Origin: Malacoraja senta
Lineage: Eukaryota
DNA: 64,000 bases
Direction of reading: 5' to 3'
Assembly (NCBI GenBank): GCA_038087875.1
Contig: CM075988.1
Coordinates: forward strand, 1,426,001-1,490,000
Below, piece after piece: positions 25,610 through 63,267 of the stretch. The notes below the pieces were generated by a model, which did not search any database, had not been told where the DNA came from, and saw only the letters and a list, made by a program, of their open reading frames with translations. The position numbers and the translations under genes are program-made. Numbering within the stretch: position 1 is the stretch's first letter; the number at the start of each line of letters is the position of its first letter.

Positions 25610-26918
25610 GTAAGAAGGAACTGCAAATGCTGGTTTAAACCAAAGATAGACACAAAAAGCTGGAGTAAATCAGCAGGACAGGCAGCATCTCTGAGAAGGA
25701 ATGGGTGATGTTTCGGGTCGAGACTCTTCAGACTGGTTATGTAGCAATGTTACAAAATTTTGAGATTTTAAAAATAAAGTCTGCAATTTATCCCATCAGA
25801 TAAAGCATAAAAAGAAGTTTAATTTGACACCTAATTCACTTTCATATCTTCAGTATTAAAGAAGTTATGGCCATTTTCATACTCGGAAATTAGCATCTTG
25901 TTCCCTATTGCTTTTTCATTGACTTAACTCAAAAGCTGTGATCGAGGACAGTTAAAAGCCCATAACTTTCTTAAAAATTAAGATAACTGAAAGAAATTTC
26001 CAGTTATTATAGATTGAAACATTCTGAAACAAATATGAAACAATCTTACTTAGAAGACATGAAAGTAAAGCATATAATTAGTTAGTTACCTAATTGTAGC
26101 TAATTACAAAATTCAATTACTAGATCTAAACATCTTATCAATTTCTTAAGAATAGATTAACATTTTTAAATAGCCTAAGTGTCCAAATAACATTCACTCA
26201 AGAATTCACAATATAACATAATTTTTAAATCTCATTTTCATGAATTTACAGGCCAAATGGAAGGAATTGAATGTTTAATACCTGTAAATTAATGGGCATT
26301 TAATTCATCTTGCGAGCGAGGATTTCTGGAACGCGATCTTTTGGAACGTTCATTTGCGGTGAATTTAACCCCGTATTGGCATGAAAAATACTGCCGTTAA
26401 TTCGGGGAATAAAATCACCGTGTCGCATGAAAAAATGTGAATTAAAGGCTTCTTAAGAAGCACTTTTATACATTTAAAGAAACCCCTTTCGTTTACCTGT
26501 CCCAGTGTGAAATCCGTCCCCGTTATCGGCGTTGACGCTTCAGAAGCTGATTTTAAAATTACTCTAGCGCTGACATTGACGATTTAATAAAAATAAAAAA
26601 TACACAAATCGCCACTAGGAACGATTCATCAGCCAACGCTTGTACAACAAAATATTAACTAGGACAAGGGAGGAGAAACCCGCGTTTTAACCCCGCCCCC
26701 CTTAAAGTCGCCAAAATCGCGCACACGGCCAGTGGCAGAATTACAGCGTGACTGAAGGTAAGTTTTGTAACATACCTAGGTTATGGATAAGGGAAACGAG
26801 AGATATAGGCGCTGATGTAGAGAGATAAAGAACAATGACTGAAAGAGATAAAGAACAATATATTTCATATATTTCATTCATTGTTCTTTATCTCTTTACA
26901 TCATCGCCTATATCTCTC
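25610..26918 (-). mobile_element. Penelope-derived repeat, split by a DNA transposon and ending in a 41-bp inverted repeat
   Basis: PLE terminus at 25610-25734; inverted pair 26798-26838 / 26878-26918. Confidence 0.7.
25742..26778. mobile_element. Non-autonomous DNA transposon, TAG...CTA ends, 7-bp TSD (hATw-like?)
   Basis: TIR tagcaatgttacaaaa / ttttgtaacataccta; TSD ggttatg at 25735-25741 and 26779-26785; homologous to 54433-56597. Confidence 0.85.
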
Positions 26919-39987: not shown

Positions 39988-41568
39988 TAGTAACCTCCAG
40001 GCACGGAAATCGCGATCAAAATATGGGATATCAAATAACCTACAGCCCTGCCTGGACAGACAGGACACCAGCCTGGAGTAGTGGAGCTAGCGCTGCTTCT
40101 CCGCGCTGGCTGTAAACCTGGGCTGTCGTTCCCATAAGTCCAGGCAGGGCTGTAGGTTAACCTGGCGGGACGGGCAGAGTTGAGCTGGGTTTAGCGCTGC
40201 TTTTCTGCGCTGGCTGTGGGCCTGCGGGTATCACTCCCGTCTGACCCCGACGTCTCTGGCCACCCCTGGGGCGGCATTCGGGTGGGGACAGGGATGGTCC
40301 AGTGGCGTTTCGGCAGCGGTTTCAGCGCCGGAGACCGGGATCGATCCTGGCAGCAGATGAGGCGCAGGTCTGTGTCCAGGGCTGCCGAGAGTGTTTTGGC
40401 ACGTCTCCCTCCTCCAATCACCGCGCTCTATCCTCAGTCCCACCGCCCCACTTCTGCCTCTGACCGACACCTCCCTCCTCCAATGATTGCGCTGAATCAT
40501 CATGTCCCGCTCCGATTACCTGCTGACCGACGTCTCTCTCGTCCAATCGCCGCTCTCGATCAGCAGTCCCACCTTCACTGTCTCGCGGAAAGCGGAGATT
40601 TCATCGGGTTTTAAATCCGGATTACAAAAAATGGGGGGGATCATCCCCCACCTCTCAAAACAGGGGGGGACGTGTGTCCCCTGGCACCCCTCCCCCCTGG
40701 ATTTCCGCCCCTGGTAACCTCCATAATTTTTAGGACAAAGACCCATTATTTATTTAGAAATACTCTTCAGAAGTCGGGTGTGGATTTGTCAATGACCACT
40801 GTCCGCAGAAGACTTCATGAACAGAAATACAGAGGCTACACTGCTGACAAGATGCAAACCACTGGTAAGCTGCAAAAATAGGATGGCCAGGTTACAGTTT
40901 GCCATGAAGTACTTAAAAGAACAACCACAGTTCTGGAAAATGGTATTGTGGACAGATGAGACAAAGATTAATGTATATCAGAGTGATGGCAAGAGCAAAG
41001 TATGGAGGAGCGAAGGAACTGCCCAATGATCCCAAACATACTGCTAAAGCAACAAAGGAGTTTTTCAAAGCTAAAAAATGGTCAATTCTTGAGTGGCCAA
41101 GTCAATTGCCCAATCTGAACCCAATTGAACATGCCTTTTATATGCTGAAGAGAAAACTGAAGGGGACTAGCCCCCAAAACAAGCATTAGCTAAAGATGGC
41201 TGCAATACAGGCCTGTAATAGCATCATCAGAGAAGACACCCAGCAACTGGTGATGTCCATGAATTACAGATTTCAAGCAGTCATTGCATGCAAAGGATAT
41301 GTGACAAAATACTAAACATGACTACTTTCATTTACATGACATTGCTGTGTCCCAACATTATGGTGCTCTGAAATGGGGGGACTATGTCTAAACACTGCTG
41401 TCATTTCTACATGGTGAAACCAAAATGTATAAAAATGGCCTTTATTAAAATCTGACAACGTGCACTTTAACCACATGTGACTTTTTCTATTACAAATCAC
41501 AAATTGTGGAGTACAGAGACAAATAAATAAATGATGGGTCTTTGTCCCAAACATTATGGAGGGCACTG
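39988..41568 (+). mobile_element. Tc1 element, internally deleted; left TIR split by the hAT
   Basis: TTVRRRLHE, LWTDETKI, EWPSQLPNLNPIEH; right TIR ...ttatggagggcactg|TA. Confidence 0.9.
39998..40713. mobile_element. Non-autonomous hAT with 8-bp TSD
   Basis: TIR caggcacggaaatc / gatttccgcccctg; TSD gtaacctc at 39990-39997 and 40714-40721; internal GC-rich repeats. Confidence 0.9.
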
Positions 41569-53527: not shown

Positions 53528-54933
53528 GTCCAGCACCAGACTCCCAAAACAGATGCACCGTTTCAAGTTTTGTTATTGGAAATGATTACCAGGCAGACAG
53601 AAGAAAAGGTTCAGGATATGCTTTAAGCCTTGTTGATGTGCAGCATTCCCATTGTCTCCTGGGAATGTCTAGCCCATTTTTGCTTAGTGTGGAGAAGGAG
53701 CATTTCAGGTGGTATTGAAAACCTTGTGCTCATCATCAGGAGCGCCCGGAAGCTATTGAGTTTTGTTGAGGTGACTGTCAGTTTCTGTTCAGCCCATGTG
53801 TCACGAGCCATATAGGTCTCATTAGCCACTTCAAAAACCACAATGGATGTGTCATCCTTGATCCCAAGGGGTTGCATCAGAGTCCTGAGCCTCCAGATTT
53901 ATTTTTCCAAAGGTTGTCTTTTCTCCTTTATAAAATCCATCTGCCTAATGGTCCTGTCCCACTTAGGCGACTACAGGAGACTGTGCAGTCGCCACATGTT
54001 CGCGTATGGTTGCCGGGGAGTCGCCTTCATGGTCGTGAGGAGTTCCTGCATTCTGGGAACTAGTCGCGGCCTCATTATGATCGCTGTGAATTTTTCAACA
54101 TGTTGAAAAATTATCGGCGACAATAATGAAGCCGTCATGGAGAGTAGCGAGAATTCCCGTGCCGTAGGTGGGTCGCCAGGAGATCCTAGTGGGTTGCCAG
54201 GAGGTCGTAGGTTCTCGTAGGTTGTGCCCGGTGCTGACCGGTGAATTTCATTTGCACATTGGGGGAAAAAAAGGTAAGCAGTAGTTTTCAGAACCAAGGA
54301 TAACTGACTGGTAATGTTAATGTCTGCAGAGCTTGACAGCCGTGTATCTCTGGCTTCTTAAAAGTTGTCTCCACTCCTTCTCCCCCCTCTCTCCCTCTTC
54401 TCCTCCTCTCCCCCCTCTTTTAAAGGACTTACTAGGAATGTCACAAAATTTTGAGATTTTAAAAATCAAGCCTGTAATTTATCCCATCAGATAAAGCATA
54501 AGAAGAACTTTAATTTAATACCTAATTCACTTTCACATCTTCAGTATTAAAAACATTATGGTCATTTTCATACTTGGAAATTAGCATCTTGTTCCCTATT
54601 GCTTTTCCATTCTTAACACAAAAGCTGTGATCGAGGACAGTCAAAAGCCCATACTTTCTTAAAAATTAAGAGAAATGAATGAAATTATCAGTTATTTTAG
54701 ATTGAAGCATTCTGAAACAAATATGAAACATCTTACTTGGATGACCTGAAATTAAAGCATATAATTAGTTACCTATTTGTAGCTAATTAAAAAATTGACC
54801 GTTGTGACGGAAATAGTTATAAACACCCAGACTGCCTTAAATTCAAAAATGTGATATTCTCAAGATCAGAACTTCAATATTATTGTATTATATGCTGTAG
54901 GTCTGTAACAGACAGGTAAAGAAATTGCAATTT

Positions 54934-55279
54934 CTAGCAAAAGACCAAGTCTTTATGGAGAAGATTAGTTGCTAGCTGGTACATTGGCATATCATAATCA
55001 GTAGCATCATCATACTCCTCAGATTGTAACCAATAAGCAACTCTGCACACCTTGTTCTTCCTCAGCTTTTCAATTTTGGCATTGTAAACTACAAGTTTTT
55101 GCTCTTCAAACCACGCATGGCATTCCTTTCTGACCACTACTTTCCCATTAAGAATGTCCTGCAGATCATCACATTTGGAATAGTCCAAATTCGGATAATC
55201 TCTGCAAATGCTGTATAAATCAATCTCTTTTGCTGGGCATTTGAATTGACAATTTTGCATTTCTTCTTTAGAGACATCT
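54934..55279 (-). pseudogene. Putative last exon of a transposon gene; Tudor/Spindlin-like C-terminal domain
   Basis: Polypyrimidine tract and AG at 55281-55280, then an open frame DVSKEEMQNC...MYQLATNLLHKDLVFC*; absent from the shorter copy. Confidence 0.55.
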
Positions 55280-55977
55280 CTTTAAAATGTAAAGAGAAAA
55301 AAAAAACACTGAACAGCATTAACAGAAACAAGTTATTATTTGCAGTTTTAGAAAAAATGGTAGAAATAATAAAGTTAAACGCCAAAACAAATAGTAAATA
55401 CCCAACAAAAAATTAATATTCATCATTCATCAAATCAATTAAATTCATCTAATCAATTACTAGATCTAAACATCTATCCATTTCTTAAGAAAAGGCTAAC
55501 ATTTTTAAATATCCTAAGTATCCATATAACAAACTCATCCCATTCACACAAGAATTCATATCATAACATGATTTATAAATCTCACTTTGTCATGAATCTA
55601 TATGCCAAATGGAAGGAATTTAATGTTTAATTCCCATAAAATAATCCAGAAACATCCACTCTCAAGATAATCAAAATCGCTATTTTTTGCACAATACATC
55701 TGACTAAAACTGTACTGTGGATATTTAGTATGAAAATATTGATCATGGATAGACAATAACACAAAATATAGACGATTTAGATGTTCTTATGACATGATTG
55801 TGCAAAAAAATAATGAATTTGATTATCTTGAGAGTGGATGTTTCTGGAACGTGATCGATTGGAATGTTGCCGTTGCCATAAGTTTTAAGCCCATATTGGC
55901 AGGCAAGGCATGGCCAATTCTTAACATGCCTAAATAACATTTTTCGCATCATAAGATTAAAATGAAGCCACACCAAA

Positions 55978-56268
55978 TGAAGCGGTCTAGGCATAAGATC
56001 AGGGGCGACCGCGCCTTTGCGGTTGCAGCTCCTAGACTGTGGAACAGCATCCCCTTTCCCATCAGAACTGCCCCCTCCATCGACTCCTTTAAGTAAAGAC
56101 TAAAAACGTATCTATACTCCCAAGCCTTTCTTGACGTCCTCTGAGCGAGGGCTATATGTATATATGTATGTAGTTTGTTTGTTTATACTATTATTACAAA
56201 TGTAAAGCACTTTGGCCAACGAGAGTTGTTTTTTAAATGTGCTATATAAATAAATGTGACTTGACTTG
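55978..56268 (+). mobile_element. L2 LINE 3' end with 8-bp TSD
   Basis: RGDRAFAVAAPRLWNS...FK*RLKTYL; aaatgtgctatataaataaa tail; TSD acaccaaa. Confidence 0.9.
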
Positions 56269-58109
56269 ACACCAAAAAGCAAGATATTATGTTAAATAAA
56301 CGACATACCTTTTGTTTTGTCCTGATATTGCGATCCGTGATGTTGAAGGTGTATTTAGTCGCGTTTAAGTTAAATCCAGCGATGCAATTGTCCAGCAATT
56401 TTTTTCCTTCAAAACCGCGAACAGAAGCCTGGACGATTTTTCTTCATCAGCTAGCAGCCCGAGGAAATCCCTCTCCGATAACCAATACAAACCTGCATTT
56501 TAATCCCATCTCCCCCCCCCACAAAACCCCCGTAATCACACGCACAGGTAGTGGCAGATTTGTAGCGCTGCTGATGGTAGGTTTTGTAACAACACTAGAC
56601 TTACCGTACGCTGCGCTTTTTAGCTTCTTAATTTCAGCGCCAACCGTCTGTATCACATTGGCTTTGCACCGTGTGAATTTCACTCAGACAGCGCTCCCCC
56701 CGCGTGCCCTGTCCCCCGCCTGCATAACAGGCTGGTGAAGGAAGTGATGTGTTTGTGTATGTGTTCCACTCTGACAGTCGCTGTTCCAGTTGCCAGTTTT
56801 TCAGGCGACTGCCGGCAACTTGACAGTCACCGGCAGTCGCCTGAAAAATCACCTACGTGGGACAGGCCCATTAGGTTATGAAACCTGCTCCATTGTTCTG
56901 TGTCTTGATATCAGAGTCCACTGCAGCACCCTGTGGTGTTTCACTAAATCCAAAGGTGCTAAATAACGGACATTTATTGCTGTGATAGTTACGTTGTACT
57001 TGTATCCTGGCCCACATGACACCAGATTTTAATTGTGGACCACTTCTCTGTGAAGTTTAAAAACTCTGTGTTTGATGTTCAGTGTTCTTCGTCAACCATC
57101 TTATTGTATTAATGGAATCGAGCTGGTATACTGTGAGCTTTACAAGGTTTTCATTACATGTGACGATTGCATTGAGTACTCTACCTGCCCTGCTGCATGC
57201 TTGGGCAAGTTGTTTTGATGATTGACACTCATGATAATGTGCTTGACTGCGTTATGCAAAGAACCTGCTGCTCCAAAATTTGATTCAGCAACTGAAAAAG
57301 TTTCAATCAGTGACAGGAAGAATAATCGGTTAGAAGACTGGAAAGCTGCCAGTAAATAGCATTTTTTGTTCCAGTGTACCATGATTCAGCAATTTGAGGA
57401 TATCAAAGGAATGGGGAGGGAACGAGGAAGAGATACAACACTGATATTACTCAGAATACTGTCAGCAGTGCCGTCCGTGCCTTAGTCATCTAATATTGAA
57501 ATCTTAAGGACGATCATCAAGAATAAAGGTGATGTTGATGTAGAGATTATCTATTGTTAAACATTGACCTGTACAAAAGCACTCTGGGCTAGAATTTTCA
57601 ATCAGTATCGCAGTATGGTAAATCACTTCACCTTTTGCCATGTTGATGCACGAACAGGAGTTACAAAGCTTTTTCCATAATAAGTTGTAGAAATCTAGAT
57701 GCTCCTGGCCCAGAGATGTATATTTTCATTTAAGTAGGATACGACAGAAAAATAAGCATGAAATATTTTCTTCTCTGTTTGAGATTGAATGTATTGCACA
57801 TAATGCAAACCTCTGGGAATGTCCATGTGGGTTATGTGATGGTGCACAGCATGTACAGGTATCAGCCTTGTGGAAGTTGGAGACCAAATCATGCAGCCGT
57901 CTTACTTGGAATGAGAGAATCTATTCCTGTGTGTCAGCAGAATGCTTATGTTGAGGTACTGCTAATGATGAAAGACAAATATAATACCTGCACTAACTTT
58001 TACAATGCTGAACGCTTCTCATTGCTGATCAACTTCAATGTCTCTTCATTGAAAGATATATAATATTCAGACATATGTTTATTCATGAAATCAAAGCATT
58101 CAAATATGT

Positions 58110-61871: not shown

Positions 61872-63267
61872 CCGCCCATTTCAGCACCCCATAATGTTTG
61901 GGACACAGCAATGTCATGTAAATGAAAGTAGTCATGTTTAGTATTTTGTTGCATATCCTTTGCATGCAATGACTGCTTGAAGTCTGCGATTCATGGACAT
62001 CACCAGTTGCTGGGCGTCTTCTCTGGTGATGCTCTGCCAGGCCTGTATTGCAGCCATCTTTATCTTATGCTTGTTTTGGGGGCTAGCCCCCTTCGGTTTT
62101 CTCTTCAGCATATAAAAGGCATGCTCAGTTAGGTTCAGATCGGGTGATTGACTTGGCCACTCAAGAATTGACCATTGTTTAGCTTTGAAAAACTCCTTTG
62201 TTGCTTTTGCAATATGTTTGGGATCATTGTCTTGCTGTAGAATGAACCACCGTCCAATGAGTTTTGAGGAATTTGTTTGAACCTGAACAGATAGGATGTG
62301 TCTATACACTTCAGAATTCATTATGCTACTACCATCAGCAGTTGTCTCATCAATGAAGATAAGTGAGCCAGTACCTTCGGCAGCCATACATGCCCAGGCC
62401 ATAACACCCACACCACCGTGTTTCACAGATGAGGTGGTATGTTTTGGATCTTGAGCAGTTCCTTCTCTCCTCCATACTTTGTCCTTGCCATCACTCTGAT
62501 ATAATCGTCGTCTCACCTGTCCACAAGACCTTTTTCTAGAACTGTGGTTGCTCTTTTAAGTACTTCTTGGCAAACTGTGACCTGGCCATCCTATTTTGCG
62601 GCTAACCAGTGGTTTGCATCTTGCAGTGTAGTCTCTGTATTTCTGTTCATGCAGTCTTCTGCGGACAATGGTCATTGACAAATCCACACCTGACTCCTGA
62701 AGAGTGTTTCTGATCTGTCGGACAGGTGTTTGGGGATTGTTCTTTATTATAGAGAGAATTCTTCTGTCATCAGCTGTGGGGGTCTTCCTTGGCCTCCCAG
62801 TCCCTTTGCGATTAGTTCCAATTGAATAATGTTCCAAACAGTTGATTTTGGTAAGCCTAAAGTTTGGCTGATGTCTCTAACAGTTTTATTCTTGTTTCTC
62901 ACTCATAATGGCTTCTTTAACTTTCATTGGCACATCTTTGGTCCTCATGTTAATAAACAGCAATAAAAGTTTGCAAAGGTGATGGATAGACTGGAAGAAA
63001 GACTAGGTGCTGAGACCTCTCTTATACCTGCATTAAGGAGGCATTTAAACACACCTGAACGGTTACAAACACCTGTGAAGCCATTTGTCCCAAACATTAT
63101 GGTGCCCTAAAATGGGGGAGGGGGGGGGGGCACATATAAACCTATGTACCTGTAAACCTATGTATAAACACAGCTCTATTATAATATAAACACAAATCTC
63201 AAATTGTGAAGTACAGAGGCAAATAAATAATTGATGGATCTCTGTCCCAAACATTATGGAGGGCACT
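61872..63267 (-). mobile_element. Tc1 element with decayed DD34E-type transposase
   Basis: GRPRKT, IVRRRLHE, VKHGG..VMAWAC, QQDNDPKH, WPSQSPDLN..E; TIR ...ttatggagggcact; same family as 39988-41568. Confidence 0.93.

Follow-up and report, generated by a model that had tools for sequence, protein, structure and literature searches.

A shortened hAT-like transposon of Malacoraja senta retains the C-terminal relic of a transposase with a predicted Spindlin-like Tudor domain

The element in the window and its open frame

The window analysed here is a stretch of 64,000 nucleotides from Malacoraja senta (GenBank assembly GCA_038087875.1, contig CM075988.1, positions 1,426,001 to 1,490,000 of the forward strand). 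It contains a transposable element that had been delimited from the sequence alone by its terminal repeats and target-site duplications, together with a shorter sister copy; the features of both are as follows, with positions being those of the window:

54433..56597, minus strand: non-autonomous deletion derivative of a hAT-like DNA transposon (all 40 scored places in the genome match at 86–100% over the 3' part; autonomous parents of 4.27 kb)
56598..56604, minus strand: 7-bp target-site duplication GTAAGTC, 5' side
54426..54432, minus strand: 7-bp target-site duplication GTAAGTC, 3' side
56582..56597, minus strand: 5' imperfect terminal inverted repeat (TAG...)
54433..54448, minus strand: 3' imperfect terminal inverted repeat (...CTA)
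55977..56268 (ends approximate), plus strand: insert of about 290 bp, derived from the 3' end of a LINE-like retroelement and including a short duplication
55278..55310, minus strand: T-rich tract and AG ahead of the native ATG; the autonomous copy shows the identical AG-ATG
55233..55277, minus strand: transposase codons 1–15, beginning at the native ATG (55277) and read in a different frame from the domain
55231..55232, minus strand: deletion junction, at which two filler bases replace about 2.6 kb of transposase gene
54934..55230, minus strand: transposase codons 881–978 and stop
54937..55185, minus strand: predicted Spindlin-like Tudor domain together with the helix that precedes it (residues 896–978 of the intact transposase)
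25742..26778, minus strand: the sister copy, a shorter member of the family, flanked by the 7-bp duplication GGTTATG and without a coding relic

The delimitation at 54433–56597 was confirmed: the imperfect TAG...CTA termini are flanked by a perfect 7-bp duplication, both copies of GTAAGTC being identical. The sister copy, 1037 bp in length and bounded by a duplication of its own, indeed lacks the open frame. The 2165 bp of the window element include the extra insert, the usual unit of the family being ~1.87 kb: this insert corresponds to a gap at query positions 330–615 in other family copies and matches, at 94–96%, the end of a reverse-transcriptase-bearing insert in locus L051, with its own ends placed by comparing flanks with locus L002. 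The window copy is a dead, shortened relic of a recently mobile element and, as such, ordinary debris. Elsewhere in the window, two inverted copies (41024–41355 and 61898–62555, 93% over 332 bp) include a 205-codon frame that by eye resembles a Tc1-type transposase, and the remaining long frames appear by eye to be LINE and Penelope-type debris.

Within the element, an open frame of 115 codons extends over 54934–55281 on the minus strand, in agreement with the sequence-only reading of a frame of about 114 codons with the same C-terminal peptide; the polypyrimidine tract and AG noted ahead of it are present as a T-rich tract and AG. Interpretation of the frame as a spliced exon did not hold: the AG is the one found directly before the transposase ATG, inherited with the T-rich tract from the 5' non-coding part of the parent, and the supposed exon boundary is the deletion junction, with only the last 98 of the 115 codons being native coding sequence. 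Since the sequence skipped at this junction starts with GC and finishes with TG, and since the same deletion joint is present in contigs of the public runs X3 and X4, we assign it to a deletion of DNA and not to splicing. Among the joints listed from contigs of seven runs presumed to be RNA, deletion joints were found and no GT..AG joint, it being understood that assembled contigs of such runs cannot reveal expression. The intron-containing transposase gene that had been postulated likewise gave way to an intronless coding region, with one continuous frame of 977–1029 codons running through to the shared C-terminal end in 16 of the 20 loci fetched for long frames. The frame in the window is almost certainly the relic of the C-terminus of a single-exon, hAT-like transposase, left behind in a deletion derivative. 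Compared with the young intact protein, it exhibits 13 amino-acid differences, including G913V, Y942C and D969N at conserved sites.

A search of the genome at the DNA level gave 5545 candidates, of which 40 were scored, and a protein search with the frame gave 2077 candidates, of which all 150 scored showed 86–100% identity. The frame is hence family-wide and more than a chance occurrence. A host exon captured by the window copy alone was ruled out: the frame occurs throughout the family, and the host Spindlin gene is separate and contains introns.

In the shortened copies, the domain codons evolve neutrally: over 20 copies picked by DNA similarity, the non-synonymous share of changes was 93/124 (0.75, compared to a neutral share of 0.74), stops were present in four of the 20 and frameshifts in none over 94 codons. 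The comparison of substitution rates among copies, which had been proposed as a measure of selection, gave a divided answer: shortened copies are neutral, whilst between subfamilies the core exhibits purifying selection (pN/pS 0.19) and the domain offers too few changes (2 synonymous, 5 non-synonymous) for a verdict. That deletions keep the domain is explained by its position, ~500 bp from the 3' end of the element. Of the 43 loci with both the native ATG and the junction (some being duplicate retrievals of the same copy), a single one has a frame that runs from this ATG into the domain.

Several further observations concern these shortened copies. A second ATG at 55260, 17 bases past the native start, sits in the Tudor frame, and leaky scanning at this position could in principle yield a 108-residue stand-alone domain in the deletion family, the copies of which are neutral. 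At locus L012 (G000:C6, ~39.44 Mb), an extra small deletion sets the native ATG in the domain frame and generates a 111-residue open frame. Loci L058–L062 represent a second, independent deletion family with its junction at element positions 1121/1432 and most domain codons kept; a joint matching this family was found in runs X2 and X3.

Intact parents and the predicted transposase core

The search for an autonomous copy, suggested earlier as a check, was successful: intact parents elsewhere in the genome measure 4.27 kb, contain a single 978-codon frame ending in the same C-terminal peptide and exhibit TAG...CTA ends with 7-bp target duplications. Divergence among 15 full-length young copies is only 0.0–1.5%. 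When at most one mismatch was allowed, the 7-bp duplication was seen in 24 of 27 copies with clean ends and in 23 of 24 further copies with both ends. The target sites of 24 copies show a weak palindromic preference, approximately C-W-W-W-R-W-G.

The earlier assignment of the peptide to the C-terminus of a DDE transposase is borne out by these 978-codon parents and their Hermes-like core. In the model of the whole transposase (pLDDT 85.4), the core is predicted to be of the RNase H type with D429, D506 and E784 and a C531-x-x-H534 motif, whilst a 58-residue helix (825–882) would keep the C-terminal barrel at a distance from it. These core residues are close to invariant among relatives: D429 in 79/80, D506 in 78/79, C531 in 78/78, H534 in 79/79 and E784 in 80/80. 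The best Foldseek match of the core was Hermes (E 3.9e-7), with the P-element transposase at E 7e-5; in the VIA comparison, Hermes reached Z 18.6 (rmsd 3.6, 332 aligned) and the next family, ISCth4, 10.9, with the P transposase missing from the 50 best matches and no THAP match found. Pfam scans detected no hAT family (dimerisation domain, BED finger) in five proteins or frames and none in 20 distant relatives, and those of the window frame and transposase pieces gave no meaningful match; single-sequence and whole-protein profile searches of the PDB returned coiled-coil noise only, and nothing came near a gathering score in Rfam. An Atlas feature search with the whole protein led to unnamed mollusc clusters (0.91–0.94).

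One search returned 116 relatives of the transposase, and another, run against representatives clustered at 50% identity, gave 1759 with E-values of 0.001 or better. Those with named hosts come from Hydra, sponge, molluscs, echinoderms, priapulid, sea spider, brachiopod and bony fish, and nearly all are uncharacterised proteins.

With Hermes and other hAT transposases (PDB 4d1q, 6dwz, 8edg), the family shares an RNase H core with helical insertion, the D-D-E triad, the C-x-x-H motif, short imperfect terminal repeats and a single-exon gene; it differs in its 7-bp duplication, where 8 bp are usual, in an identity of ~10% and in matching no Pfam hAT family, and the alignment with Hermes does not extend to its coiled-coil N-terminal half, its long C-terminal helix or its Tudor domain. 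The 8-bp duplication typical of hAT elements is absent here, groups with 5, 6 or 7 bp being accepted exceptions. The hATw elements, which we take to be a group with 7-bp duplications, are a candidate placement for the window family; they are annotated in Hydra and amphioxus, and Hydra contains many relatives of the transposase. Families of hAT elements with 7-bp duplications, including Repbase entries marked '7-bp TSD' and the fungal hAT7, have been catalogued (accessible text of PMC4455052 and PMC12730594). Such groups resemble the present family in combining a hAT-type core with a 7-bp duplication; fungal hAT7, in contrast, groups with families of the Ac/Tam3 type from fungi and plants, and TET/JBP genes may be part of its elements.

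Fold and profile evidence for a Spindlin-like domain

Of 129 relatives complete at the C-terminus, 125 carry the C-terminal domain, the range extending from Hydra to fish. The model of the domain (pLDDT 95.5) is a five-strand barrel with a helix preceding the last strand. Spindlin1 ranked first in Foldseek (TM 0.58, E 0.013), no match reaching E 0.001 or better; in VIA, Spindlin-4 (rmsd 2.7, 64 aligned) and the RDM15 Tudor domain both obtained Z 7.0, followed by the SH3-like barrel of TraI, a non-reader (6.6), BAHCC1 (6.3) and TnsB (5.0). Tudor domains top both fold searches, and since a Z of 7.0 is below the caution level of 8 for this tool, the result speaks for a Tudor/SH3 arrangement more than for a particular family. 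The domain very probably adopts a Tudor-type fold.

Profile comparisons point more specifically to Spindlin. With a profile built from transposases only, a search of the PDB (177,635 sequences) placed 17 Spindlin sequences first, at E 7.8e-5 to 1.1e-3 and with the next match at 0.31, these E-values being sums over the Spindlin tandem repeats (best single-repeat value 0.067). Alignment with the three Spin repeats of the host by hhalign gave 92.9% and E 3.7e-7 over 62 columns, and the profile scored 19.1 bits against host repeat 1, compared to at most 6.2 for 60 column-shuffled profiles. An earlier, less diverse profile had reached E 0.0065 and 87% against host repeat 1, and matched host repeat 2, the one for H3K4me3, with a probability of only 15%. 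In Pfam, none of 55 domain sequences scored above the curated cut-off for Spin-Ssty (PF02513), and five of the 55 each matched two Tudor families below or near the cut-off (best E 3.1e-4). The Atlas feature search with the domain gave a best value of 0.81 and 0.76 for Tudor-like clusters including Spin-Ssty, all under the lead level of 0.9. Searching with the domain profile for other architectures returned seven proteins, six of them known transposase relatives and the seventh P0256, which is weak evidence.

The Spindlin-type Tudor likeness noticed by eye is thus supported by the first rank in Foldseek and the Spindlin-first ordering of the PDB profile search, whilst the check by fold and profile as a whole gave a mixed outcome: Spindlin ranks first with a PDB E-value of 7.8e-5, but no sequence enters the Pfam family and Z is 7.0. 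We consider it probable that the domain is a true Spin/Ssty relative; as it fails Pfam membership and the tandem architecture, we name it Spindlin-like. Compared to Spindlin-1 to -4 (PDB 5jsg, 4mzg, 4uy4, 7bqz; PF02513), the likeness consists of a Tudor-type barrel followed by helix and last strand, a start of the form G-x-x-x-x-H-x-W, aligned aromatics and a C-terminal stretch that aligns with repeat 2 without gaps. In contrast, Spindlins are stand-alone proteins with three tandem repeats, whilst the transposase carries one repeat at its C-terminus, lies at ~17% identity and below Pfam detection, and exhibits a longer acidic beta3-beta4 loop, a basic beta2-beta3 loop and an extra conserved W947.

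Two observations on related barrels may be added. One distant relative (P0119, 1103 aa, ~20% identity) has a shorter C-terminal barrel, without the long acidic loop and closer to Spindlin in appearance, which makes it a possible bridge between the transposase clade and the Spin/Ssty repeats. The host three-repeat Spindlin gene, with introns, occurs twice in the assembly (G000:C1:146.91 Mb and C1031), and a genome search with PF02513 found only this gene, with six repeat matches.

Proposed histone reading and its alternatives

Pocket and anchor residues of Spindlin1, taken from the accessible text of PMC3967050, were mapped onto the host repeats and thereby onto the transposase domain. W920, Y929 and Y946 align to W62/W72/Y91 of repeat 1 and F141/W151/Y170 of repeat 2, and D969 and D974 fall in ungapped register on Spindlin1 D184 and D189, which anchor H3 R2 and A1 (PMC3967050). 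Across 113 fully covering domains, the three pocket aromatics are present in 110, four in 97, and four together with both acids in 95, the acids individually being kept in 111 (D969) and 110. Position 959 is aromatic in 99 of the 113; we infer its fourth-pocket register, as a match of F959 to Y98/Y177 requires a 3-residue shift, and F/Y959 is likely to be the fourth pocket residue as judged from the alignment. Mean charges over 55 sequences are +3.9 for the basic beta2-beta3 loop and -5.0 for the acidic beta3-beta4 loop. Complex prediction with the domain and an unmethylated 35-residue H3 tail gave a score of 0.01.

From this arrangement, a mode of action can be proposed. W920, Y929, Y946 and probably F/Y959 would form a methyl-lysine pocket, D969 and D974 would anchor the H3 N-terminus in the manner of Spindlin1 D184 and D189, and the acidic and basic loops would add contacts to the tail and to DNA. 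Several barrels per transposase multimer would provide the avidity that Spindlin gains from its tandem repeats. The barrel would likely tether the transposase to nucleosomes via a methylated histone H3 tail, the tether serving either landing-site choice or the finding and protection of donor copies. The domain is somewhat more likely than not to bind a methylated histone; that it measurably biases insertion is doubtful.

If the mark were H3K4me3 and the tether served target choice, young insertions should favour CpG islands. In a first set of 12 young copies (L076 and L082, a duplicate and an older copy, as well as five copies without clean ends being left out), the median CpG observed/expected ratio of the flanks was 0.65 compared to 0.395 (p 0.038), with no islands. 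This excess was not replicated in a second set of 23 further copies (of 32, eight without an end and one duplicate flank removed), where the ratio was 0.425 (p 0.80) and CpG islands were found at 2 of 23 flanks, the share among 305 background windows being 7.9%. These flanks do not support strong promoter targeting, although the test is limited by the low number of copies and by selection acting after insertion.

The barrel might, alternatively, read no mark at all: it would be a structural SH3-like barrel that binds DNA or joins subunits, as in retroviral integrases and TnsB, with the aromatics serving core packing. With Z 6.6 for TraI and Z 5.0 for TnsB, SH3-like barrels come near the Spindlin score, the beta2-beta3 loop carries a strongly positive net charge (+3.9 on average), and the insertion bias proved not to be reproducible. 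However, Spindlin is the only barrel in the PDB to which the sequence shows affinity, and the best-kept positions are those aligned to pocket and anchor, including the two acids (111 and 110 of 113), which DNA binding leaves unexplained; we regard the structural barrel as improbable. A reader of methylation could also act away from target nucleosomes, on methyl-arginine or methyl-lysine of host silencing or repair proteins or on the chromatin of the donor copy, in which case excision or silencing would be affected and not the landing site. The strongest profile match is indeed to Spindlin repeat 1, the pocket of which takes H3R8me2a, other close folds read other marks (RDM15 H3K4me1, BAHCC1 H4K20me1), insertion flanks resemble background, and SPIN1-SPINDOC is reported to silence young retroelements (accessible part of PMC11512509). 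The acids aligned to D184/D189, on the other hand, point to anchoring of a free H3 N-terminus, and we hold this off-target reading to be distinctly improbable.

The remaining alternative concerns the relic itself and would make it a spliced exon, or the source of a stand-alone Tudor protein that shortened copies express via the ATG at 55260. The T-rich tract and AG ahead of the frame, this ATG in the domain frame, the retention of domain codons in at least two independent deletion families and the lack of frameshifts in all 20 copies over 94 codons are what such a function would lead one to expect. Against it, the parent gene is one frame and, of 43 loci, one has a native ATG that leads into the domain in frame, substitutions are neutral with stops in 4/20, deletions retain the domain by position, and the window copy has lost G913, Y942 and D969; this alternative is very unlikely indeed. 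The explanation that we favour, with somewhat better than even confidence, is that the window holds the decaying C-terminus of a transposase, the intact form of which is predicted to carry a Spindlin-type barrel and likely to use it as a nucleosome tether. A broader joint reading is unlikely in our view: a clade of hAT-like elements of aquatic animals in which a single Spin/Ssty repeat is a functional reader, binds the transpososome to the tails of methylated H3 and shares a direct ancestor with the host Spindlins. Shared ancestry, unlikely at the same level as part of this joint reading, could mean that the module was captured early from host Spindlin genes or was their source, and the ~17% identity over 62 columns between Spindlin and transposase domains is too little to root a tree.

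Reader folds at the end of an integrase or transposase are also found in chromodomain Gypsy elements, the Tudor-carrying Gypsy-10_Ec32 and Ephydatia hAT-chromodomain fusions, and for such fusions a tethering of integration has been proposed or shown (accessible parts of PMC12477816 and 10.1101/2021.11.30.470311). In contrast to these, the present family is a cut-and-paste DNA transposon with a Spindlin-type repeat that is fixed in a clade from cnidarians to fish, rather than a lineage-restricted fusion. The 2025 paper, as far as its accessible text goes, presents the brown-algal Tudor-carrying Gypsy as the first such transposable element known to its authors (PMC12477816); in 10.1101/2021.11.30.470311, the fusions covered by the accessible text are mostly of PHD and chromodomains, including hAT-chromodomain in sponge, and 'spin' does not occur in the main text. 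In the literature open to search, no transposase was found to be described as having a Spindlin-type domain, though Repbase Reports, subscription journals and bioRxiv supplements may hold such a description. The family-wide Spindlin-like end of the transposase is real and widespread, and apparently undescribed in the literature that could be searched.

Chromatin readers are established for the integrases of LTR retrotransposons, and a Spindlin-type repeat, if the proposed reading is true, would extend reader-guided transposition to cut-and-paste enzymes. Spin/Ssty repeats would then gain a first broad set of single-repeat relatives, and targeting studies a vertebrate transposase that is intact, was active recently and comes with a tether of its own; if the reader works, the near-identical intact copies would represent a ready enzyme for chromatin-guided cut-and-paste integration. 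As a minor observation on the distribution of the family, transposon matches at 1135775–1137820 of contig G000:C1545 lie inside a contig that is dense with histone genes.
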